A stretch of DNA of 64,000 nucleotides from Escherichia phage PNJ-9 (PQ100635.1), one strand, 5' to 3'; shown: positions 4,196 to 50,370, counted from the stretch's first letter. Notes: generated by a model from the letters alone, not told the origin. Numbers and translations are program-made.

Positions 4196-4501
4196 ATGAA
4201 ATTAACAGAAACCAACCGAATTGGTCTTTTAACAATACTTGCATCACCTTTTTACGCAGCCCTTTCTGTTGCAGTATTACAAAAGGCTTACGATATGGAT
4301 GGTGTTCCTGGTTTTATATTCTTATCGCCGTTTTTGCTATTCGTTGGAGCATTGTTATTATATGCCACGACTGGTTTCGACCATAATGTCTGGGTCAATT
4401 ATAAATGTAAATTGTCTGAAGAAGAACACGCAGAAGCTCGTAAAAAAGCTATTGAATCTACCAATCTAGAAAATTTCATTAAAGAATGTCGAGGAAAATA
4501 A
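4196..4501 (+). CDS. small membrane protein, C-terminal ENFIKECR tail family
   Basis: TM helices; C-terminus STNLENFIKECRGK; GAGGAG upstream. Confidence 0.6.
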   Translation: MKLTETNRIGLLTILASPFYAALSVAVLQKAYDMDGVPGFIFLSPFLLFVGALLLYATTGFDHNVWVNYKCKLSEEEHAEARKKAIESTNLENFIKECRGK

Positions 4502-4502
4502 T

Positions 4503-5189
4503 ATGAATAGTTCTAAAGTGTTTAATAGTCAAGCTCGTGCAGTAGGTGGTTTTGCCGGCGGTATTTCTAATGATAAAATCAAGAACGAGCCTATGTTCTT
4601 CAACTGTAGTTTAGAATTTGCTTATAATAATGGCGGTCCTATTACTCGCTCTTTCATTATGAACTTGCCGGATGATTGGAACACCGACCAGGTTGTATTT
4701 GATTCACGAGTCCACATGCTGATGCCTGGTTGGTATCCTGCTATTCCTGGATATCACCATGATGACGTACCACGCCCAGATATTCCAACAGGACAACATT
4801 TTATTACTGCAGGACAACCTGATTATGACAACCCTCGTTACCATTCTGAACATATTCTTGGTCTTGTTAACGCTGATGTGTGTCCTACTCATTTTGCAAC
4901 AGGAACTGCAGAGTTCAGTCAGATTCCTGATGGCGAACTTATCTATCGCCAGTGGCACAAAGAAGTCCTCGAAAAAATCGAAAAAGGCGAACTAGAGAAA
5001 TGGGAAGCTCCGGACCGTACTCTTCTTCAGTTTGATTGGCAAACATGGCACACTGGTTCTCGTGCAATTAGTAATGGATGGCGGTGGTTCGGACGTGTAT
5101 CTCGTAATACAGACCGAGTTAAAAAGATTACCAATGAAATTCGTGTCAACGCCCAAGTTTATCTGGAATTCCCTATGGAAGGCTGGTAA
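4503..5189 (+). CDS. hypothetical protein (228 aa)
   Basis: ORF track; starts 2 nt after upstream stop. Confidence 0.6.
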   Translation: MNSSKVFNSQARAVGGFAGGISNDKIKNEPMFFNCSLEFAYNNGGPITRSFIMNLPDDWNTDQVVFDSRVHMLMPGWYPAIPGYHHDDVPRPDIPTGQHFITAGQPDYDNPRYHSEHILGLVNADVCPTHFATGTAEFSQIPDGELIYRQWHKEVLEKIEKGELEKWEAPDRTLLQFDWQTWHTGSRAISNGWRWFGRVSRNTDRVKKITNEIRVNAQVYLEFPMEGW

Positions 5190-41067: not shown

Positions 41068-43779
41068 ATGAAAGAATTTTACTTAACGGTTGAACAGATT
41101 GGTGATTCAATTTTTGAACGTTACATCGATTCTAACGGCCGTGAACGTACTCGTGAAGTAGAATATAAACCATCACTGTTTGCTCATTGTCCAGAAAGTC
41201 AGGCCACGAAATATTTTGATATCTATGGTAAGCCGTGCACTCGTAAGTTGTTCGCTAATATGCGTGATGCCTCCCAATGGATTAAACGCATGGAAGATAT
41301 CGGACTTGAAGCACTTGGCATGGACGATTTCAAATTGGCGTATTTGTCTGACACTTATAACTATGAAATCAAATACGACCATACAAAAATTCGTGTGGCT
41401 AACTTCGACATCGAAGTAACATCTCCGGACGGGTTCCCTGAGCCGTCACAAGCAAAACATCCGATTGATGCTATCACCCATTATGACTCAATTGATGACA
41501 GGTTTTATGTATTTGACCTTTTGAATTCTCCATATGGTAATGTAGAAGAATGGTCTATTGAAATCGCTGCTAAGCTTCAAGAACAAGGCGGTGATGAAGT
41601 TCCATCCGAAATTATCGATAAAATCATTTATATGCCGTTCGATAACGAAAAAGAATTGTTGATGGAATATCTCAACTTCTGGCAGCAGAAAACTCCTGTC
41701 ATTTTGACTGGATGGAACGTTGAGTCATTTGATATTCCATATGTGTATAACCGAATCAAGAATATTTTTGGCGAATCTACTGCGAAACGTTTATCACCAC
41801 ATCGCAAGACTCGTGTTAAAGTTATCGAAAACATGTATGGTTCTCGTGAAATCATTACATTGTTCGGTATCTCTGTTCTTGATTACATTGACCTTTACAA
41901 AAAATTCTCTTTTACCAATCAACCATCGTATTCTCTGGATTATATTTCAGAATTTGAATTGAACGTTGGTAAACTGAAATATGACGGCCCTATTTCTAAG
42001 CTTCGTGAAAGCAATCATCAACGATATATTTCTTATAACATCATCGACGTATATCGGGTATTGCAAATTGATGCTAAACGTCAGTTCATCAACTTGAGTT
42101 TAGACATGGGTTATTATGCTAAGATACAGATTCAATCTGTGTTTAGCCCAATTAAAACATGGGATGCTATTATTTTTAATAGCCTTAAAGAGCAGAACAA
42201 GGTGATTCCACAAGGTCGTTCTCATCCGGTTCAACCTTATCCCGGCGCTTTTGTTAAGGAACCTATTCCAAATCGATACAAATATGTAATGAGTTTCGAC
42301 CTTACATCTCTGTATCCAAGTATTATTCGCCAAGTGAATATTAGCCCAGAAACAATAGCAGGAACGTTTAAAGTAGCTCCATTGCATGATTATATTAACG
42401 CTGTTGCTGAACGTCCTTCTGATGTGTACAGTTGTTCTCCTAACGGCATGATGTATTATAAAGACCGTGACGGTGTTGTTCCAACTGAAATCACTAAAGT
42501 CTTTAATCAACGTAAAGAACATAAAGGTTACATGCTTGCAGCTCAACGTAACGGTGAAATAATTAAAGAGGCATTGCATAATCCTAATCTTTCTGTTGAT
42601 GAACCATTAGATGTTGATTATCGTTTCGACTTCAGTGATGAGATTAAAGAAAAGATTAAAAAGTTGTCTGCTAAATCTCTTAATGAAATGTTGTTTAGAG
42701 CTCAACGTACTGAAGTTGCAGGTATGACTGCCCAAATTAACCGTAAATTGCTTATCAACTCACTTTATGGTGCGCTTGGCAACGTTTGGTTCCGTTATTA
42801 TGATTTGCGTAATGCTACTGCAATCACAACATTTGGTCAAATGGCTTTACAGTGGATTGAACGTAAAGTTAATGAATATCTGAATGAAGTTTGTGGTACA
42901 GAAGGTGAAGCTTTCGTTCTTTATGGTGATACAGACTCTATTTACGTATCTGCTGATAAAATTATCGATAAGGTTGGTGAATCTAAATTCCGTGATACCA
43001 ACCATTGGGTAGACTTCTTAGATAAGTTTGCACGTGAACGTATGGAACCAGCTATTGATAGGGGTTTCCGTGAAATGTGTGAATACATGAACAATAAACA
43101 ACACTTAATGTTCATGGACCGAGAAGCTATCGCTGGGCCTCCACTCGGTTCTAAAGGTATTGGTGGATTCTGGACTGGTAAGAAACGTTATGCATTAAAC
43201 GTGTGGGATATGGAAGGTACTCGTTACGCTGAGCCTAAACTCAAAATTATGGGTCTAGAGACTCAGAAATCTTCGACTCCTAAAGCAGTACAGAAAGCTC
43301 TTAAAGAATGTATTCGTCGTATGCTTCAAGAAGGTGAAGAATCATTACAAGAATATTTTAAAGAGTTTGAAAAAGAATTCCGTCAATTGAATTATATTAG
43401 CATCGCGTCGGTATCTTCTGCGAATAACATTGCTAAATATGATGTAGGTGGATTCCCTGGTCCCAAATGCCCGTTCCATATTCGTGGAATTCTGACGTAT
43501 AACCGGGCTATCAAAGGTAATATCGATGCACCGCAAGTTGTAGAAGGTGAAAAAGTATATGTTCTGCCTTTACGTGAAGGAAACCCATTCGGTGATAAAT
43601 GTATCGCATGGCCTTCTGGTACTGAAATCACAGATTTAATTAAAGACGACGTACTTCATTGGATGGACTACACTGTTCTCCTTGAGAAGACATTTATTAA
43701 ACCACTTGAAGGATTCACATCAGCAGCGAAACTCGATTACGAGAAGAAAGCATCTCTTTTCGATATGTTCGATTTTTGA
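41068..43779 (+). CDS. 43: DNA polymerase gp43 (family B)
   Basis: 903 aa; exo motifs FDIE, YNIIDV; pol motifs DxxSLYPS, YGDTDS. Confidence 0.96.
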   Translation: MKEFYLTVEQIGDSIFERYIDSNGRERTREVEYKPSLFAHCPESQATKYFDIYGKPCTRKLFANMRDASQWIKRMEDIGLEALGMDDFKLAYLSDTYNYEIKYDHTKIRVANFDIEVTSPDGFPEPSQAKHPIDAITHYDSIDDRFYVFDLLNSPYGNVEEWSIEIAAKLQEQGGDEVPSEIIDKIIYMPFDNEKELLMEYLNFWQQKTPVILTGWNVESFDIPYVYNRIKNIFGESTAKRLSPHRKTRVKVIENMYGSREIITLFGISVLDYIDLYKKFSFTNQPSYSLDYISEFELNVGKLKYDGPISKLRESNHQRYISYNIIDVYRVLQIDAKRQFINLSLDMGYYAKIQIQSVFSPIKTWDAIIFNSLKEQNKVIPQGRSHPVQPYPGAFVKEPIPNRYKYVMSFDLTSLYPSIIRQVNISPETIAGTFKVAPLHDYINAVAERPSDVYSCSPNGMMYYKDRDGVVPTEITKVFNQRKEHKGYMLAAQRNGEIIKEALHNPNLSVDEPLDVDYRFDFSDEIKEKIKKLSAKSLNEMLFRAQRTEVAGMTAQINRKLLINSLYGALGNVWFRYYDLRNATAITTFGQMALQWIERKVNEYLNEVCGTEGEAFVLYGDTDSIYVSADKIIDKVGESKFRDTNHWVDFLDKFARERMEPAIDRGFREMCEYMNNKQHLMFMDREAIAGPPLGSKGIGGFWTGKKRYALNVWDMEGTRYAEPKLKIMGLETQKSSTPKAVQKALKECIRRMLQEGEESLQEYFKEFEKEFRQLNYISIASVSSANNIAKYDVGGFPGPKCPFHIRGILTYNRAIKGNIDAPQVVEGEKVYVLPLREGNPFGDKCIAWPSGTEITDLIKDDVLHWMDYTVLLEKTFIKPLEGFTSAAKLDYEKKASLFDMFDF

Positions 43780-43819: not shown

Positions 43820-44455
43820 ATGAAAACTACTCCTATTACTATCGCTATTGACGCAATCATAAAACAATCTTCTTCTTTGGCCGCTATGGCCAAAGTAATT
43901 AGTCAAAACCCTGCTCGTTATAATGCTATTCTAGAAACTCTTCGACGCCCGGGACTTAGTAATTATGAAAGCCGAGTAATTATTACAGGTGTTGGTAAGA
44001 ATGCTAATATTGCAACTAAAGCTTCTGAGACATTTGCTTCACTCGGTATCCCGAGTATGTACTTGAACACTGGGCATTATTCTCACGGTGATGCAGGATT
44101 CATTGCGCCTAATGATGTGTTGATTCATATTAGTCGTTCTGGTAAAACTGAAGAAATGATAGGCGTGGCTAAGCATCTTAAAATGATTCGTCCGAACGTC
44201 AAACAGATTCTGTTGCATTGTAACCCAGACATTCCACAAGAATACGAAGCTCTTTTTGATTATACGTTCTGTACAGGCATCGCAGTAGAGGTTGATGAGA
44301 ATTCTCTGGCTCCGACCATGTCCACTACATTGTTGTTAGCGCTTATCGATACGTTTGCTATCAACCTTTCGTCTGAACGTGGATTTACCTCTAATGACTT
44401 CCTTAAGTTCCACCCTGGCGGTGCACTAGGTGCCATGTTACGAGGCGAACAATGA
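43820..44455 (+). CDS. SIS-domain sugar-phosphate isomerase (KdsD/GmhA-like; arabinose-5-phosphate isomerase candidate)
   Basis: GVGKNANIATKASETFASLGIPS...HGDAGFI...DVLIHISRSGKTEE follows KdsD-type SIS pattern; single SIS domain, 211 aa. Confidence 0.7.
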   Translation: MKTTPITIAIDAIIKQSSSLAAMAKVISQNPARYNAILETLRRPGLSNYESRVIITGVGKNANIATKASETFASLGIPSMYLNTGHYSHGDAGFIAPNDVLIHISRSGKTEEMIGVAKHLKMIRPNVKQILLHCNPDIPQEYEALFDYTFCTGIAVEVDENSLAPTMSTTLLLALIDTFAINLSSERGFTSNDFLKFHPGGALGAMLRGEQ

Positions 44456-44636: not shown

Positions 44637-46325
44637 ATGAAAAAAGCTGTTATTCTTGGTGCTGGACTGGCAACTCGTTTGTATCCAATAACGCATCATA
44701 TTCCTAAGGTGCTTGTTAACTATAAACAAGACACTATTCTGAGCAATTTGTATACAATTTATTCTGACCTTGGCGCAGATGAAATTATTGTAGTAGTTCA
44801 TTCAAAATTTGCTGAAACTGTTCGAGCTTATTGTGAGCAAGAAGGGTTCAATGTGACTATTCGTACAGTTGATGAAGCGTATGGTTCTGCTTATGCTCTT
44901 GCTAAATTGCACAAAGATTTAGACGGCCATAATGTAATTGTTAACTGGTGTGATATTATTCCTGATTTTGGTTCGTGGTCTTGGAATGTTAACGCAATCT
45001 ATGTTAAGGGTGACGAATGTCGATATAATTTCGACGGTGAAAATATCACTAATGTAGGTTCAACAGGTGGTAATGTTGTAGGAATTTATCAGTTCAAAGA
45101 CTGGGAATTCTATATGGGTTCTACTGATGAGGAAATTCATGAATACTGCAAAGGACGTGATTTCGTAGAATTCCTTTACGGCAGCGCATTCAATAAATCA
45201 GAGCTTATGAATATCATCGACCTTGGTGATATGCCTAAACTTGAAAAAGCTCATGAAGTTCGTGAACTTAATCGTAGTTTTAATGCAGTTGAAATTGGCG
45301 AAGAAACGGTAACAAAGATTGCTTTAACAGAACAGGGCGTTGCACTTCAAAAAGATGAAGTCAATTGGTATAAGAAAGTTAAATCAGATTCAGTTCCACG
45401 GATTGTAAGTTATCATCCTGGCGGCCACTTTATTATGGAACGTATTAAAGGTAAGCCAGCATTTGAATATATTAAATCCAAATCAAGTCTTGCTCGTCCA
45501 CAAATTGTTGATGCAATTTTAGATGCACTGAAATTCAGCACAGACACTTATTTTGTAAGTCCTGAAACTGTTCGTCGTGATTTCACTAAAGAATTCTATA
45601 CTAAAGTTATTGATCGTTGTGAAAGTATTCAACCATTGATTGATTCATTTGGTAAAATCACACATGTGAACTACACTAAGATTGGGCGTCTGAAGCCAAT
45701 GTTGAAACAAGCTTTAGAACACCTTATTCGTTATCATAACCGTTCTCAGGGACAGTACTCTGTTATTCATGGTGACCCGAACTTCAGTAATACTATGATT
45801 ACTGATAATGGTGAAGTCAAGTTTATCGACCCTCGTGGATATTTTGGTGAAACCAAGATTTATGGGCCAAAATTGTATGATGAAGCTAAAGTGCTTTACG
45901 CTGTTTCAGGTTATGATGAATTCAACGCTAATCCGACTTGGGGACAGTTTACTATTGATGAAACAACTTGTAATGTGACTATTAACATCAATCCGTTAGT
46001 TTACAAATATGGAAAGATGAGTTCGTTTAATGAGTATCATCATTTGGCTGTAGCAATTATCTGGATTGCATTAGGTGGTTATTTCAAGAATAATCCACTT
46101 AAAGCGGTAGCCGCATATTATAAAGGTATGGAACTTCTGACTAAGCAATTACGTAATATGGGCCGTGTACTTCAAGACGGCTCTATTAGTTATGATGTAG
46201 CAGAACCTGTAACGGCTACTCTGATTACAAAAAATCCTGGTAAATGGGTACTAACTGATAAAGAAACTGGTGTTTCTTATCGTCCAATCGGTGGCGATAT
46301 CACTCATCAATGGGAACGAATCTAA
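44637..46325 (+). CDS. bifunctional sugar-1-phosphate nucleotidyltransferase / APH-type kinase
   Basis: N-terminal NTase motif ILGAGLATRLYP; C-terminal kinase motifs IHGDPNFSN and FIDPRG (Brenner motif). Confidence 0.7.
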   Translation: MKKAVILGAGLATRLYPITHHIPKVLVNYKQDTILSNLYTIYSDLGADEIIVVVHSKFAETVRAYCEQEGFNVTIRTVDEAYGSAYALAKLHKDLDGHNVIVNWCDIIPDFGSWSWNVNAIYVKGDECRYNFDGENITNVGSTGGNVVGIYQFKDWEFYMGSTDEEIHEYCKGRDFVEFLYGSAFNKSELMNIIDLGDMPKLEKAHEVRELNRSFNAVEIGEETVTKIALTEQGVALQKDEVNWYKKVKSDSVPRIVSYHPGGHFIMERIKGKPAFEYIKSKSSLARPQIVDAILDALKFSTDTYFVSPETVRRDFTKEFYTKVIDRCESIQPLIDSFGKITHVNYTKIGRLKPMLKQALEHLIRYHNRSQGQYSVIHGDPNFSNTMITDNGEVKFIDPRGYFGETKIYGPKLYDEAKVLYAVSGYDEFNANPTWGQFTIDETTCNVTININPLVYKYGKMSSFNEYHHLAVAIIWIALGGYFKNNPLKAVAAYYKGMELLTKQLRNMGRVLQDGSISYDVAEPVTATLITKNPGKWVLTDKETGVSYRPIGGDITHQWERI

Positions 46326-46711
46326 TGCACCGTGTAAAAAACATGCTTAATCTTTGTTTTGATGTCGATGATTGCATCACGGAATGGAATAACAATCGTG
46401 ATTACGTGAACTTCAAACCAGACGTCGAAATGGTGTCTGCCATTAATGCCCTATATGATGCAGGGCATACAATAACGCTTTACACTGCTCGCGGTATGAA
46501 GTCAGTCGGTCCTGGTCGTATAGCAATTGACATTCTCCCAAGTCTGATTCAGAACTTGGCAAACATTGGATTGAAGTACCATAATTTGCTAACACATAAA
46601 CCAGTATATGATTGGATTATCGACGACAAAGCTATGCGTCCTGACGAATTCAAAGCTCTTATGAATAAAGGCGAATTCGAAACATTTAAATCATATAAAC
46701 CGAATCTATAA
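46325..46711 (+). CDS. HAD-superfamily phosphatase
   Basis: HAD motif I FDVDDCIT near N-terminus, motif IV WIIDDK; TAATG overlap. Confidence 0.65.
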   Translation: MHRVKNMLNLCFDVDDCITEWNNNRDYVNFKPDVEMVSAINALYDAGHTITLYTARGMKSVGPGRIAIDILPSLIQNLANIGLKYHNLLTHKPVYDWIIDDKAMRPDEFKALMNKGEFETFKSYKPNL

Positions 46712-46765
46712 TAATTTAAGTAAGACCTGCAAAAACCATCGCAACAATTAACGCGAGATGCAAAA

Positions 46766-47926
46766 ATGAATACCTTTAAAATCGGAACGAATTTTGATTT
46801 AGCTCTTCTTGATAAAATCGTAGAGCTCAATAAAACTTATCCTAATAGCTTGATAAACGAAGTATACGGCTCTACCAGAGAAATGGCTTTTGTAGCAGCC
46901 AGACCTGATTTTAGGCTTCCTGACGTTGACAAAAAGATGTTAGAAGATTACGTTAAACGTTGTAACGAATTAGGTATTTGCTTTAACTATACACTCAACA
47001 CGATAAATCCTGGTTCAAAAAGAGAACTAGTTGAGTGGAAGAAGAAAGCTATTCAGGATTATGTTCAGTATCTTTGGTCAATAGGCGTATGGCGTATTAC
47101 TATCGCTAACCCTGTTGTTATGGAAATTGTTCGTGAAGTCAATAAAGACATTGAGATTGAAGTTTCAACAATTCTACATGTCGATGCTGTAACTCAAATC
47201 AAATACTTGCATGACCAATATAATATCAAAAAGGTCTGCTGTGGAATTCATAAGAACCGTTCAGTTTCTTTCCTGAAGCGTGCAGCAGAGTTTTGTAATA
47301 AGAACAATATAATATTTGAAGTTCTTGTAAATGAGTTCTGTTCTAATGCTGGTAAAGGGTATACAACACATTGTAGCTATCGTGACTCTTGCTATATTTT
47401 CCATAGCACCGATGTTACAGTAGATGATGCTAAATCCTTAAACGGATATCCAATGCAGCACTGTATTAAAGCTCGTGATACAGACCCATTTAACTGGTTG
47501 AGAACTCGTTTTGTTCGTCCTCAAGATTTGAAACTTTATAATGATATTGGTATCACTCAATTCAAAGTTTCAGGACGTACAGGTAGCACAGACTACATTT
47601 TGAAAGTTCTTGAAGCTTATGCTTCCGAAAAATTTGAAGGTAATTTGTTGGAATTGTGGAAGCCTTTAGAGACCATTTTCACTCTTGAAAATGAGACCGA
47701 GTTTTCACATACGGTAAATATTGAAACCTCTTTGTTAGATGGCTTTTTAGAAAAAAGGTGGTTCAGACATCCAGATTTCGATTGTGCTAATGAAATCTGC
47801 GGGACGACGTGTACATATTGTGAAAGATATTATAAACGTCAATTATCTAAAAACGGGTTAGCAGAAAACTCTATATCTATTATTGATATAACTAACTCTG
47901 ATGACGCTTTGAGGTACCCGGAATGA
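46766..47926 (+). CDS. Cys-rich protein of unknown function (candidate metal/Fe-S enzyme)
   Basis: 386 aa; C-terminal CANEICGTTCTYC (Cx4Cx3Cx2C) plus Cys pairs; no family assigned. Confidence 0.6.
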   Translation: MNTFKIGTNFDLALLDKIVELNKTYPNSLINEVYGSTREMAFVAARPDFRLPDVDKKMLEDYVKRCNELGICFNYTLNTINPGSKRELVEWKKKAIQDYVQYLWSIGVWRITIANPVVMEIVREVNKDIEIEVSTILHVDAVTQIKYLHDQYNIKKVCCGIHKNRSVSFLKRAAEFCNKNNIIFEVLVNEFCSNAGKGYTTHCSYRDSCYIFHSTDVTVDDAKSLNGYPMQHCIKARDTDPFNWLRTRFVRPQDLKLYNDIGITQFKVSGRTGSTDYILKVLEAYASEKFEGNLLELWKPLETIFTLENETEFSHTVNIETSLLDGFLEKRWFRHPDFDCANEICGTTCTYCERYYKRQLSKNGLAENSISIIDITNSDDALRYPE

Positions 47927-48066
47927 TTTCTAGAAAAACTTTTAACCACCAACTTAACGAAGAGATTTTGACTATGAAAATTAACAGCAACGAACAAATT
48001 CTTAAAAAGGCCCTGATGGGCCTTTTTAAAACTAAAGCGGCTAAAGTGATTAAAGAACCTGTTTAA
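47923..48066 (+). CDS. possible small ORF (47 aa), not on ORF track
   Basis: ATGA overlap with upstream stop; contains a terminator-like hairpin, so may be non-coding. Confidence 0.25.
   Translation: MISRKTFNHQLNEEILTMKINSNEQILKKALMGLFKTKAAKVIKEPV
48009..48027 (+). terminator. terminator-like hairpin in 47927-48204 gap
   Basis: GGCCC-TGAT-GGGCC flanked by A-run and T-run. Confidence 0.45.
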
Positions 48067-48160
48067 TTGGAATACTACGCTGATGCATTTCTTCATAGTG
48101 TTCTTGGAAGTATCGATGCTGAAGCTTTACGTTATATCAACATTGTCAAGAAATTCAAAT

Positions 48161-48185
48161 AAGCTTTACGAATTGAGTATATAAT
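48161..48185 (+). promoter_or_regulatory. middle-promoter-like element upstream of 42-like gene
   Basis: AAGCTTTA, 11 bp, TATAAT. Confidence 0.45.
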
Positions 48186-48204
48186 AAATTGTATTGAGGT
48201 AAAC

Positions 48205-48921
48205 ATGGGAAAACATAACACAATGAAATATATCAAAGCCGCAGATTTTCAAACCGCATTTAAAGCAGTCAATCGTGAAATTTTAGAAAACCCGGAATTC
48301 GTAACTGATTCTCGTATTGGACGTTGTAATGAAATTGGGTCTATGACAGTAGTTGTTGATACCCCTTCATCATTCAAAATGACCGACCCACGTATTAACC
48401 GCATCTCTTATGAATATGCCGAAGACTTCTGGAAATTTATGATTTCTGGTGGTACTGATGCAGAAGAAGCATTTAAGGCATATCCTAATGTCGCTAAATT
48501 TATTTCTAAACCAAAATCAGATGCTTTGCCTGCGAACTTCAACACTTTCTATGGTCCTCGCATTGCGGCCCAATTACCAACTCTTCTAAAAGAACTTAAA
48601 GAGAAACCTAACTCTCGAAGAGTTGTGTTCCAAATTCTAGAAAGTTCTGATCAGGCTTTGCTTGATTCGGATGAAACGCTTGAATATCCATGTACTGACT
48701 CAGTGACTTATTATATTCGTGATGGTAAGCTTTATACCCACTGTCATATGCGTTCTCAGAACTGTGCTGTTGTTATGCAGTTGGATTTTTATCTCCAAGG
48801 AAAATTACTTCATTATATCGCTAACGAATGTGGTGTAGAAGTTGGTGATTATACTCATACCATGGTAAGTGCCCATGTGTTTGAACGTGATTTTGATTAT
48901 GTTAAAGGATTCCTTGACTAA
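48205..48921 (+). CDS. 42: thymidylate-synthase-fold pyrimidine hydroxymethylase (divergent gp42-like)
   Basis: PNSRRVVFQI, catalytic-Cys segment PCTDSVTYYIRD, MRSQN...DFY align to T4 gp42; much more divergent than neighbours. Confidence 0.65.
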   Translation: MGKHNTMKYIKAADFQTAFKAVNREILENPEFVTDSRIGRCNEIGSMTVVVDTPSSFKMTDPRINRISYEYAEDFWKFMISGGTDAEEAFKAYPNVAKFISKPKSDALPANFNTFYGPRIAAQLPTLLKELKEKPNSRRVVFQILESSDQALLDSDETLEYPCTDSVTYYIRDGKLYTHCHMRSQNCAVVMQLDFYLQGKLLHYIANECGVEVGDYTHTMVSAHVFERDFDYVKGFLD

Positions 48922-49820
48922 TGGCTATTTTCCGCGTACCTATCTTGAGTATGCGGTCTTATGAAACTGGTCAGTATGCTATCCTTAAGGATGGCAACTT
49001 CCAACTTCATTTGCACCGTGCTAATCCAGGTGATGTAATTACATATCCACGTAATGCATCTGATATTAAAGAATGTGAACGTCTTTTCCCAGAATTTAAG
49101 TTTGTTCCATTATGGTATAAAGATAACGCATATAACACTCGTAAATATTTCTGGTCTGAAAATGAATTTGTGGTTGATTCATTAATTGCTTATTATGATT
49201 GTGATTTTCTAATCACAGATATCACTGGATATGACGGCGCTTTTGATGTGGAATTCAATTTCAATATCACTGCAGACCCTAATAAACCACGTTTTTATAT
49301 TGACGAATTCTTAAAAACCGATATGTTGTCGGTTAATCGTTCACTTCAAACTACTGTGTTGAATAAACGTCAAAAGGAAGTGCTGGTTAACGCTGGTGCC
49401 GATGGTAATAAGATTATCGTAACCCAGAAAGTTATACGTCCTTCCATCATGCAGCGTCTTGTAGGTGATTTGGCTCCTATTCATCTAGATGGTATTTTTC
49501 ATCCATTTCGAATTAGTGACCCGTGCTATCGTTTTGAACAAGTGGTTGAATGTGCAATTCAATTAGGTCAACCGCTTTATATAACCGATCCAAATAATAG
49601 CTTCGACAGAAATAAGTATCCTGAAGAAGCGCTGATTCGAATTTTTAAACCAACTAAAACTGAGTACTATCAAATTCTTAAAGGACGTCCGAAGATTCAA
49701 TATTTCGAAAATCCTGAAGAAGTATTTCATCCAGGTCTTGGCGAGTTCATCTACTTTAACGCTTTAATTTCTTCGCCGTATAATATACCTAAATATGAAG
49801 ATGTTGTAATCGAGGAATAA
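48921..49820 (+). CDS. hypothetical protein at beta-gt locus (candidate DNA sugar transferase)
   Basis: 299 aa; TAATG overlap with 42-like; no similarity to T4 beta-gt noted. Confidence 0.55.
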   Translation: MAIFRVPILSMRSYETGQYAILKDGNFQLHLHRANPGDVITYPRNASDIKECERLFPEFKFVPLWYKDNAYNTRKYFWSENEFVVDSLIAYYDCDFLITDITGYDGAFDVEFNFNITADPNKPRFYIDEFLKTDMLSVNRSLQTTVLNKRQKEVLVNAGADGNKIIVTQKVIRPSIMQRLVGDLAPIHLDGIFHPFRISDPCYRFEQVVECAIQLGQPLYITDPNNSFDRNKYPEEALIRIFKPTKTEYYQILKGRPKIQYFENPEEVFHPGLGEFIYFNALISSPYNIPKYEDVVIEE

Positions 49821-49821
49821 A

Positions 49822-50370
49822 ATGGCTAAAATTATTTTAGTAGATGGCCCGGATAATGCTGGTAAAACAACTTTCATTAATGACATAATGGAAATTAGTG
49901 AAAGATATGTAAAGATTGATTTCCCTAAACGAACAGTTGATGGACGTTTCGATGTTAAGTCTCGAAATGAAGTTGGCTGTTTCGAAACGATGTTGAATTA
50001 TTTAGACCCTACTAAGATTTATCTGTTAGACCGTGGATATATTAGTAACTGGGTTTATGGACGTATTCGACAAGATGCGGACTCGGTTCTTGACGTTTAT
50101 GAACAGGATTATGTTCGTCTTTGCCAAAACCATGATGTGTTCACAATTATTTTAACACGTAACGAAATGACTGAAAGTTTTGAAGACGACCTTATTACTT
50201 TGTCTTCGTTCGGTTTTAATACAGTCATTTCATATTTTGAAGAGTTTGCAATTCATAACGAAATCCAAACGTATCAATTACTTAATCATGATGGTGCTAA
50301 CAAAGTTATAGGATTTAATGCAAGCGAACGTAATAATTTGATTACAGAAATTATCAAATGGGCTCGTTAA
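49822..50370 (+). CDS. thymidylate-kinase-like P-loop nucleotide kinase
   Basis: P-loop VDGPDNAGKTT and DRGY (DRY-like) motif. Confidence 0.6.
   Translation: MAKIILVDGPDNAGKTTFINDIMEISERYVKIDFPKRTVDGRFDVKSRNEVGCFETMLNYLDPTKIYLLDRGYISNWVYGRIRQDADSVLDVYEQDYVRLCQNHDVFTIILTRNEMTESFEDDLITLSSFGFNTVISYFEEFAIHNEIQTYQLLNHDGANKVIGFNASERNNLITEIIKWAR

Follow-up and report, generated by a model that had tools for sequence, protein, structure and literature searches.

A U32-family protein encoded in the DNA-modification island of Escherichia phage PNJ-9 is a candidate oxygen-independent cytosine hydroxylase

The gene described here is located at positions 46766-47926 of a 64,000-nucleotide stretch of the genome of Escherichia phage PNJ-9 (PQ100635.1), hereafter called the window, within an island of genes for DNA modification. 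It is an ATG-started open reading frame (ORF) on the + strand with a product of 386 amino acids; the opposite strand has many stops and no open frame over the same positions. The start codon at 46766 is correct because the N-termini of the product and of its homologs line up in the alignment. The DNA of the gene is 98-99% identical in phages ST0, F2, and JS09; at the protein level, identity is 100% with ST0 and 99.2% with RB69ORF050c. The window phage belongs to the RB69 group (Mosigvirus) among the T4-like phages. The gene and the features within it are as follows.

46766..47926, + strand: U32-family gene, 386 amino acids, ortholog of RB69 gp50 / RB69ORF050c; phrog_5757
47045..47623, + strand: Pfam Peptidase_U32 domain, residues 94-286, including the K267-x-x-G270-R271 motif (from Pfam and hhalign)
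47339..47464, + strand: central Cys4 motif, predicted canonical U32 [4Fe-4S] site (from translation, hhalign, and conservation)
47783..47821, + strand: C-terminal C340-X4-C345-X3-C349-X2-C352, predicted metal site (from motif position and conservation)

Pfam matched the protein to PF01136 (Peptidase_U32) over residues 94-286 with 42.4 bits (gathering score 22.4; E 6.3e-11), and the ortholog in Enterobacter phage Entb_45 scored 43.6 bits. When a profile of the phage clade was aligned by hhalign to a profile of the four U32 proteins of E. coli, the probability was 96% (E 1.5e-9, 215 columns), and FKVSGRTGS of the phage protein fell opposite vKIEGRqrS of the E. coli paralogs. K267 and R271 were 100% conserved in 128 wide-clade representatives, and the protein has the U32 TIM-barrel fold. 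The initial annotation could not place the protein in a family; with a score above the curated cut-off and the fold of the family, it is almost certainly a U32 member. The top E. coli paralog was RlhA by hhalign and TrhP by HMMER, and these two outscored UbiU and UbiV by both methods. The orders differ and the margins are small, and we therefore assigned no subfamily. The RlhA subfamily was ruled out by the length of the protein (386 versus 653 amino acids) and by the lack of DUF3656, which was not found; PF01136 was the sole Pfam domain at E <= 0.1. The phage protein is likewise not a UbiU, because its score against the UbiU equivalog NF047963 of NCBIfam was 19.4 bits, far under the cut-off of 440. 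A search of the PDB by sequence with the phage protein gave no match. Mk0906 (PDB 5D88), a U32 "peptidase" from Methanopyrus kandleri (14% identity, 247 amino acids), has no counterpart of the region holding the C-terminal Cys cluster.

Most database records would make this protein a collagenase-like protease, in keeping with the family name and with annotations such as "peptidase", "collagenase-like protease", and, for phrog_5757, again "peptidase". We regard this as most improbable. The peptidase label is historical, and all genetically characterised U32 members have been tied to hydroxylation in spite of it (PMC6747719, PMC10990095, PMC5727448, PMC6599085); moreover, a protease does not fit with invariant Cys4 motifs, with a setting in nucleotide metabolism, or with linkage to chorismate mutase, all described below.

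The protein carries two Cys4 motifs. One of them, the C-terminal CX4CX3CX2C of a Cys-rich 386-amino-acid ORF, was the basis of the initial annotation and was confirmed here by translation and by its conservation in homologs. This motif, CANEICGTTCTYC, spans residues 340-352 (nucleotides 47783-47821). C340, C345, C349, and C352 did not vary in 106 homologs with 46-87% identity to the query and were each retained in 84-88% of the 128 full-length representatives of the wider clade, with exceptions that were mostly gaps. Judged by these alignments, the C-terminal cluster is not due to chance and is an addition specific to the phage clade. The other motif, which had gone unmentioned, is in the middle of the protein (C192-X10-C203-X5-C209-X23-C233, nucleotides 47339-47464). 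Across the wide clade, conservation was 98% for C192 and 100% for C233, and the commonest form of the motif was CX6CX7CX21C. In hhalign, the phage C203, C209, and C233 were opposite UbiU C169, C176, and C232, with GYPMQHC aligned to GYPTLC at the last of these; three of the four Cys positions of the canonical CX6CX15-16CX3/4(38)C pattern thus align.

The C-terminal cluster occurred in the clade with the spacings CX4CX3CX2C, CX3CX3CX2C, CX3CX2CX2C, and CX4CX2CX2C. The initial annotation had noted this CX3CX2C spacing, at the C-terminus rather than at the N-terminal position usual for radical SAM enzymes; as C345-X3-C349-X2-C352 matches the classical spacing, a radical-SAM-type enzyme could be proposed. 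That proposal is hardly credible: CX3CX2C was present in only 42 of the 128 representatives, CX3CX2CX2C and CX4CX2CX2C being about as common, the protein has the U32 TIM-barrel fold and no Pfam match to Radical_SAM, and the site has four Cys, not three. The variable spacing argues instead for a Cys4 metal site, and the C-terminal motif is predicted to be a second metal site, Fe-S or Zn. Reading the cysteines as a metal-site signature, as had been done initially, is consistent with their conservation across the clade, most likely with Fe-S as the metal. Binding of Fe-S by the protein is predicted with somewhat lower confidence than its membership of the U32 family.

Characterised U32 proteins provide the comparison for function. 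UbiU and UbiV each bind one [4Fe-4S] cluster through mapped Cys and hydroxylate ubiquinone precursors without O2 (PMC6747719), with prephenate as the oxygen donor (PMC10990095). For 5-hydroxycytidine 2501 in 23S rRNA, RlhA (YdcP) is required, along with prephenate and Fe-S biogenesis; the combination of the U32 domain with DUF3656 is unique to RlhA (PMC5727448). TrhP (YegQ) forms 5-hydroxyuridine 34 of tRNA using prephenate and without O2, in parallel to the O2-dependent TrhO, and organisms that live both with and without O2 retain TrhO and TrhP (PMC6599085).

RlhA shares the U32 domain with the phage protein and was its best single-sequence match in hhalign (E 5.8e-6, 206 columns). At the CX5-6C with which the Fe-S motif starts, RlhA HC-SYRDSCYIFHS aligned with LCVAYSGQCYISHA of the phage protein, and the product of RlhA, 5-hydroxycytosine, is the base of RB69 DNA. 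In contrast, RlhA has 653 amino acids, includes DUF3656, and acts on a 50S precursor, whereas the phage protein has 386 amino acids, lacks the third and fourth ligands (CX3C) at the RlhA positions, carries the extra C-terminal Cys4, and is of low similarity overall. HMMER ranked TrhP first of the E. coli paralogs (15.3 bits), but its substrate is a tRNA uridine and its C-terminal extension is absent from the phage protein. Within the U32 family, [4Fe-4S] clusters have been proven and their ligands mapped for UbiU and UbiV alone, and three of the UbiU ligands aligned with phage Cys. These two proteins are an anaerobic counterpart of flavin monooxygenases and have two clusters per functional unit; however, they form a heterodimer with one cluster per chain and a lipid substrate, whereas in the phage protein both putative sites are on one chain.

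The island around the gene is entirely on the + strand, in the order DNA polymerase, SIS isomerase, nucleotidyltransferase/kinase, HAD phosphatase, U32, ThyA homolog, glycosyltransferase, kinase, and UvsX. The neighbors needed for the argument are the following.

41068-43779, + strand: DNA polymerase
43820..44455, + strand: SIS-domain arabinose-5-phosphate isomerase, RB69 gp55 ortholog (from Pfam and PMC13326640)
44637..46325, + strand: bifunctional nucleotidyltransferase/kinase, AfhE-like, RB69 gp52:53, one ORF
46310..46711, + strand: HAD-type sugar phosphatase, AfhF-like, RB69 gp51
48205..48921, + strand: ThyA homolog, the flavin/O2-dependent 5-hydroxy-dCMP synthase, RB69 gp48 ortholog (from Pfam Thymidylat_synt)
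48921..49820, + strand: DNA arabinosyltransferase 1, RB69 gp46:47, one ORF
49822..50370, + strand: thymidylate-kinase-like nucleotide kinase, RB69 gp45

The nucleotidyltransferase/kinase (562 amino acids) and the arabinosyltransferase (299 amino acids) are each intact in the window. Both are split in the RB69 reference (gp52/53 and gp46/47), which has been put down to sequencing errors (PMC13326640), and the single intact ORFs of the window support that view. Co-transcription of the U32 gene with the sugar genes, as proposed in the initial annotation, is plausible: the genes share a strand and lie close together or overlap, and the scan of the + strand from 46711 to 48205 turned up no terminator-like site. 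The scans for promoters and terminators were both at chance level, and no operon boundaries were obtained from them.

RB69 DNA bears beta-D-Araf-3-alpha-D-Araf-5-O-deoxycytidine (PMC13326640), a structure that makes the base 5-hydroxycytosine and not hydroxymethylcytosine. The ThyA homolog gp48, a flavin-binding protein, makes its precursor, 5-hydroxy-deoxycytidine monophosphate (5-hydroxy-dCMP), with incorporation of 18O from O2, and the steps from ribulose 5-phosphate to UDP-arabinofuranose are covered by the isomerase, AfhE, and AfhF (PMC13326640). The ThyA homolog of the window is 99.6% identical to that of RB69 and has the D169N + N177D signature. Since the island modifies 5-hydroxycytosine rather than hydroxymethylcytosine, the base and not the sugar is the likely substrate of the U32 protein. 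The gene does sit in the DNA-modification island, and the redox step named initially as one possible role is the right kind of chemistry. Another initial suggestion, that the protein might be the transferase, is unlikely; the glycosyltransferase is a separate gene at 48921-49820.

A role in sugar chemistry was also considered, in which the protein would be a sugar or heterocycle reductase or modifier in the biosynthesis of nucleoside-diphosphate arabinose. The gene does lie between the sugar-activation genes and the ThyA homolog, a computed label in Table 1 of PMC13326640 reads this way, and the annotation in BASEL phage AlbertHofmann is "putative enzyme involved in UDP-arabinose biosynthesis". 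The path from ribulose 5-phosphate to UDP-arabinofuranose is, however, already complete with the isomerase, AfhE, and AfhF. Acinetobacter phage DLP3 has the same arabinosyl-5-hydroxycytosine structure plus one more arabinose, and Acinetobacter phage Maestro has been reported with arabinosylated 5-hydroxydeoxycytidine (PMC13326640). DLP3 has no U32 gene, and Maestro has the same gene order without U32, AfhF directly abutting the ThyA homolog. The U32 gene, with or without a chorismate mutase gene, therefore behaves as an accessory cassette at the junction of AfhF and the ThyA homolog, and it is dispensable for sugar chemistry. Because the RB69 glycan is a sub-structure of the glycan of the U32-less DLP3, a sugar rearrangement, as had been suggested initially, is unlikely as well. 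U32 genes were also found in genomes without any arabinose genes, and the linkage to chorismate mutase has no role in sugar chemistry. We know of no U32 member that acts on sugars, and altogether we consider a sugar-modifying role quite unlikely.

The product of chorismate mutase is prephenate. In Enterobacter phage Entb_45, a 79-amino-acid ORF that overlaps the U32 stop codon and is upstream of the ThyA homolog was a type II chorismate mutase by Pfam (40.9 bits; cut-off 27), and by its position this gene is translationally coupled to the U32 gene. Relatives of this chorismate mutase were present in 51 phage records, whose hosts belong to about 12 genera (Klebsiella, Serratia, Yersinia, Enterobacter, Edwardsiella, Erwinia, Pectobacterium, Escherichia [EcS1], Shewanella, Providencia, Morganella, and Kosakonia), and among the matches listed the gene was in the U32/ThyA-homolog cluster in all cases. 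We also surveyed viral contigs by iterated hidden Markov model (HMM) searches, viewing +-8 kb around 55 loci with a U32 relative. A chorismate mutase was beside U32 in 25 of these 55 loci, including unrelated lineages whose U32 protein is only 45-50% identical to the query; the large contigs with both genes were L036-L046. Contigs of 195-294 kb had a stand-alone CM_2 directly 3' of U32 (L037, 52 bits), and at two loci a fusion of 3-deoxy-D-arabino-heptulosonate-7-phosphate (DAHP) synthase with chorismate mutase (DAHP_synth_1 + CM_2) directly flanked U32 (L033:6321-7376 and L043:9079-10197). Together with the Entb_45 arrangement, these cases link prephenate-supply genes to the U32 clade in at least three architectures. 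The same fusion was next to U32 in three other uncultured viral contigs (L030, L032, and L034). It joins the first committed step of the shikimate pathway to the prephenate-forming step and is an unusual auxiliary gene pair for a virus.

The window has a slot of matching size between the U32 gene and the ThyA homolog.

47923..48162, + strand: slot of 240 nucleotides, the length of the chorismate mutase gene carried there by other genera

The slot contains a 47-amino-acid ORF that overlaps the U32 stop, with an in-frame TAA at 48064, and a GC-rich hairpin with a 14-bp stem at 48000-48031. We rejected it as a decayed chorismate mutase, there being no signal with Pfam or with an HMM of the phage chorismate mutases at maximum sensitivity. 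Since the slot shows no such homology, the gene has apparently been lost or replaced in Mosigviruses.

The relationship between the U32 and ThyA-type genes was clearest in two sister viral contigs, IMGVR_UViG_3300045988_147269 (L023, L064, L066, L069, L071) and IMGVR_UViG_3300045988_098192 (L065, L067, L070, L072). The U32-bearing contig, a complete viral genome of 48,944 nucleotides, was 98.6% read; the remaining 669 nucleotides are the N-terminus of a UDP-galactopyranose mutase gene that crosses the contig end. Next to its polymerase were a dUTPase_2/MazG-type dNTP pyrophosphohydrolase, a thymidylate-kinase-like gene, a glycosyltransferase gene, the U32 gene (577 bits), and a GT47-like gene; the glycosyltransferase was homologous to the DNA arabinosyltransferase of the window (E 3e-18). 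In the 98.6% read there was neither a ThyA-family gene (best E about 0.4) nor a chorismate mutase nor any arabinose gene. The collinear sister contig has 45,159 nucleotides, and most of its proteins were 85-99% identical to their counterparts. In the same slot it carried a kinase-like gene, a dNTP pyrophosphohydrolase, a gene of no assigned function, and a dCMP-type ThyA homolog (70.7 bits; N177D), but no U32 gene and no homolog of the other contig's glycosyltransferase. The U32 gene thus takes the place of the ThyA-type enzyme in what is otherwise a standard module for modification before replication, made up of dNTPase, base-modifying enzyme, kinase, polymerase, and glycosyltransferase. The adjacent polymerases were 54% identical between the two contigs, which, against 85-99% for most other proteins, suggests that the polymerase may co-evolve with the modified nucleotide.

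Both sister contigs also encode a UDP-galactopyranose mutase (GLF, 267 bits) and a ThyX-like protein (Thy1, 30 bits), at 48366-48944 and 4341-4940 of the first contig and 16357-17547 of the second. The ThyX-like gene is common to both and is therefore not the explanation of their difference. The Glf protein hints at decoration of the DNA with galactofuranose, as reported for Rhizobium phage RL38J1. A marginal ThyA-like match (E 0.077) at the end of the U32-bearing contig was rejected as the C-terminus of the UDP-galactopyranose mutase.

The two gene types occurred together elsewhere. At L048 and L053/54/56, dCMP-type ThyA homologs with N177D and a Ser at position 169 directly preceded distant U32 genes, and at L058 a U32 gene was about 6.5 kb from a ThyA homolog with the full signature of 5-hydroxy-dCMP synthases. 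The homologs at L048:6913-7944 and L053:6852-7871 have about 340 amino acids, with a C-terminal extension of about 100, and the Ser at the equivalent of E. coli D169 in these two is a variant outside the published signature. The "ThyA-like" neighbor at L022 was rejected as a 5-hydroxy-dCMP synthase; it is a canonical thymidylate synthase (D169, N177). On a 466-kb contig from the Joint Genome Institute (L001:7447-9086), a 55%-identical U32 gene overlapped the end of a dCMP-deaminase-family gene. Close by were genes for a polymerase of the PolIII-alpha type, a UDG-family protein, a thymidylate kinase, and a radical SAM/SPASM protein, and the product at this locus could conceivably be of the 5-hydroxyuracil type.

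These gene neighborhoods bear on two further possibilities. Enzymes acting on RNA, TrhP and RlhA, are the best-scoring characterised relatives, and T4-like phages encode tRNAs; the protein could thus be a viral analog of TrhP or RlhA, a prephenate-dependent hydroxylase of phage or host tRNA or rRNA unrelated to DNA modification. We find this very unlikely, given that the accessory domains of RlhA and TrhP are absent (PF01136 alone was found), that the gene is within DNA-modification cassettes of many unrelated viral lineages, and that it is swapped against a dCMP-type ThyA homolog. Alternatively, the U32 hydroxylase could act after replication on DNA cytosine, or on dCTP or dCDP, rather than on dCMP, as the substrates of RlhA and TrhP are polynucleotides. 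That scenario is unlikely in our view. The cassettes look pre-replicative, in that a dNTP pyrophosphohydrolase and a dNMP kinase accompany a polymerase that co-varies (54% identity versus about 90% for the rest of the genome), the U32 gene is in place of a dCMP-type ThyA homolog, and full replacement of cytosine is easier at the nucleotide level.

We favor, with modest confidence, the reading that the protein is an O2-independent, prephenate-dependent cytosine-C5 hydroxylase that would feed DNA modification. A narrower version is tentative and short of probable: a single-chain, two-cluster U32 enzyme that would convert free dCMP to 5-hydroxy-dCMP with oxygen from prephenate. Family, fold, Cys conservation, and gene linkage were computed here, whereas the bound metals, the use of prephenate, the independence from O2, and both substrate and product are inferred by analogy with the characterised members. 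The match in chemistry is in favor of this analogy, in that the base of RB69, 5-hydroxycytosine, is made by an O2-dependent enzyme, and U32 members make 5-hydroxycytidine and 5-hydroxyuridine with prephenate and without O2.

A canonical [4Fe-4S] cluster would be held in the TIM barrel by C203, C209, C233, and probably C192, and a second metal centre, probably Fe-S, would be located at the C-terminus and could form an electron relay like the two-cluster pair of UbiU-UbiV. The substrate would be a cytosine nucleotide, most likely dCMP, hydroxylated at C5 without O2. As proposed for UbiU/V, two-electron oxidation of the ring would be coupled to decarboxylation of prephenate, with transfer of the OH to C5 and departure of prephenate as phenylpyruvate and CO2. 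The product, probably 5-hydroxy-dCMP, would then pass to the kinase, the polymerase, and the arabinosyltransferases, a path shared with the product of the ThyA homolog. For prephenate, the window phage would rely on PheA and TyrA of the host.

The proposed product and pathway position are those of the phage 5-hydroxy-dCMP synthase (RB69 gp48, DLP3 gp80, and the HY126 enzyme), whose gene begins 279 nucleotides downstream of the U32 gene and takes the same cassette slot in the sister genomes. The synthase differs in its unrelated ThyA-superfamily fold, its use of flavin, and its oxygen, which comes from O2. The U32 protein has no Pfam match to Thymidylat_synt and is not a ThyA-type 5-hydroxy-dCMP synthase. 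The island may thus hold two routes to 5-hydroxycytosine, a flavin/O2 route through the ThyA homolog for growth in air and an Fe-S/prephenate route through the U32 protein for anoxic hosts such as gut E. coli. Such a dual system would mirror TrhO/TrhP and UbiIHF/UbiUV. TrhO and TrhP set a precedent in which a single C5-hydroxypyrimidine is reached redundantly, by an O2-dependent route and by a U32/prephenate-dependent one; the difference is that the aerobic partner there is a rhodanese, whereas in the phage it is a flavin-dependent ThyA homolog.

U32 genes of this type were present in 221 phage records, of which named genera cover about 220, all Enterobacterales or Shewanella. The ThyA homolog was in 373 phage records, including 57 of Acinetobacter phages, 20 of Rhizobium phages, and others of Agrobacterium phages. 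Enterobacterales and Shewanella hosts are facultative anaerobes, and Acinetobacter, Rhizobium, and Agrobacterium hosts are aerobes. This distribution suits an enzyme useful only in hosts that are able to grow without O2, but as evidence it is weak.

Several points weigh against the hydroxylase reading. The host correlation is weak because the independent clades are few and it is confounded by phylogeny, and in Dhakaviruses of E. coli, WG01 for example, the ThyA homolog occurs but U32 does not, so that U32 is not obligatory for phages of facultative anaerobes. In aerobic E. coli, gp48 alone is sufficient, and RB69p050 is mentioned only in a table of fold matches, where "sugar or heterocycle reductase" is its sole published label (PMC13326640). 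No U32 member has so far been reconstituted in vitro as a hydroxylase (PMC10990095). The window phage itself has no chorismate mutase. UbiU C193, the fourth canonical ligand, has no aligned Cys in the phage protein; the invariant C192 is the candidate for that position, which is a guess from the alignment, and the metal of the C-terminal site could be Zn.

Around the ThyA homolog of Escherichia phage WG01 (L061, Dhakavirus; 78% identity) were an AfhE-like gene, an HAD phosphatase, a kinase, and a glycosyltransferase, whereas U32, chorismate mutase, and any recognisable SIS isomerase were absent from that locus. This gene set suggests that WG01 presumably uses host KdsD or GutQ for arabinose-5-phosphate and O2 for hydroxylation.

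The U32 family is already known, and the gene had been noticed in RB69. In the literature searched, nothing linked the RB69-type gene to U32 hydroxylases, prephenate, or anaerobiosis; searches on U32 or chorismate mutase with phage and hydroxycytosine found nothing, and the Thanatos and Durham phage papers are silent on these genes. The claim of novelty is provisional. If the hydroxylase reading is true, this would be the first U32 enzyme of DNA-precursor metabolism, found in a virus and with an extra metal site. Known U32 substrates are a ribosome precursor, tRNA, and polyprenyl-phenols, and a small soluble enzyme acting on a mononucleotide could be a tractable test of prephenate-as-oxygen-donor chemistry.

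The sole published route to phage 5-hydroxycytosine depends on O2, yet these phages infect gut enterobacteria; a second, O2-independent route would explain full DNA modification in anoxia. Phage sensitivity to restriction and CRISPR would then depend on oxygen and on the aromatic pathway, which would be relevant to phage therapy, and the phage chorismate mutase and DAHP synthase would be auxiliary genes feeding a DNA-modification enzyme. At 50% identity, the clade comprised 496 representatives at E <= 1e-30 and 1,158 at E <= 1e-10, and its linkage to glycosyltransferases in many uncultured viruses suggests that there are DNA hypermodifications still to be discovered. In phages of anaerobes, U32 would be the sole hydroxylase behind glycosylated 5-hydroxypyrimidine DNA, and anoxic viromes would then commonly contain such DNA, given the roughly 500 clusters of the clade at 50% identity.

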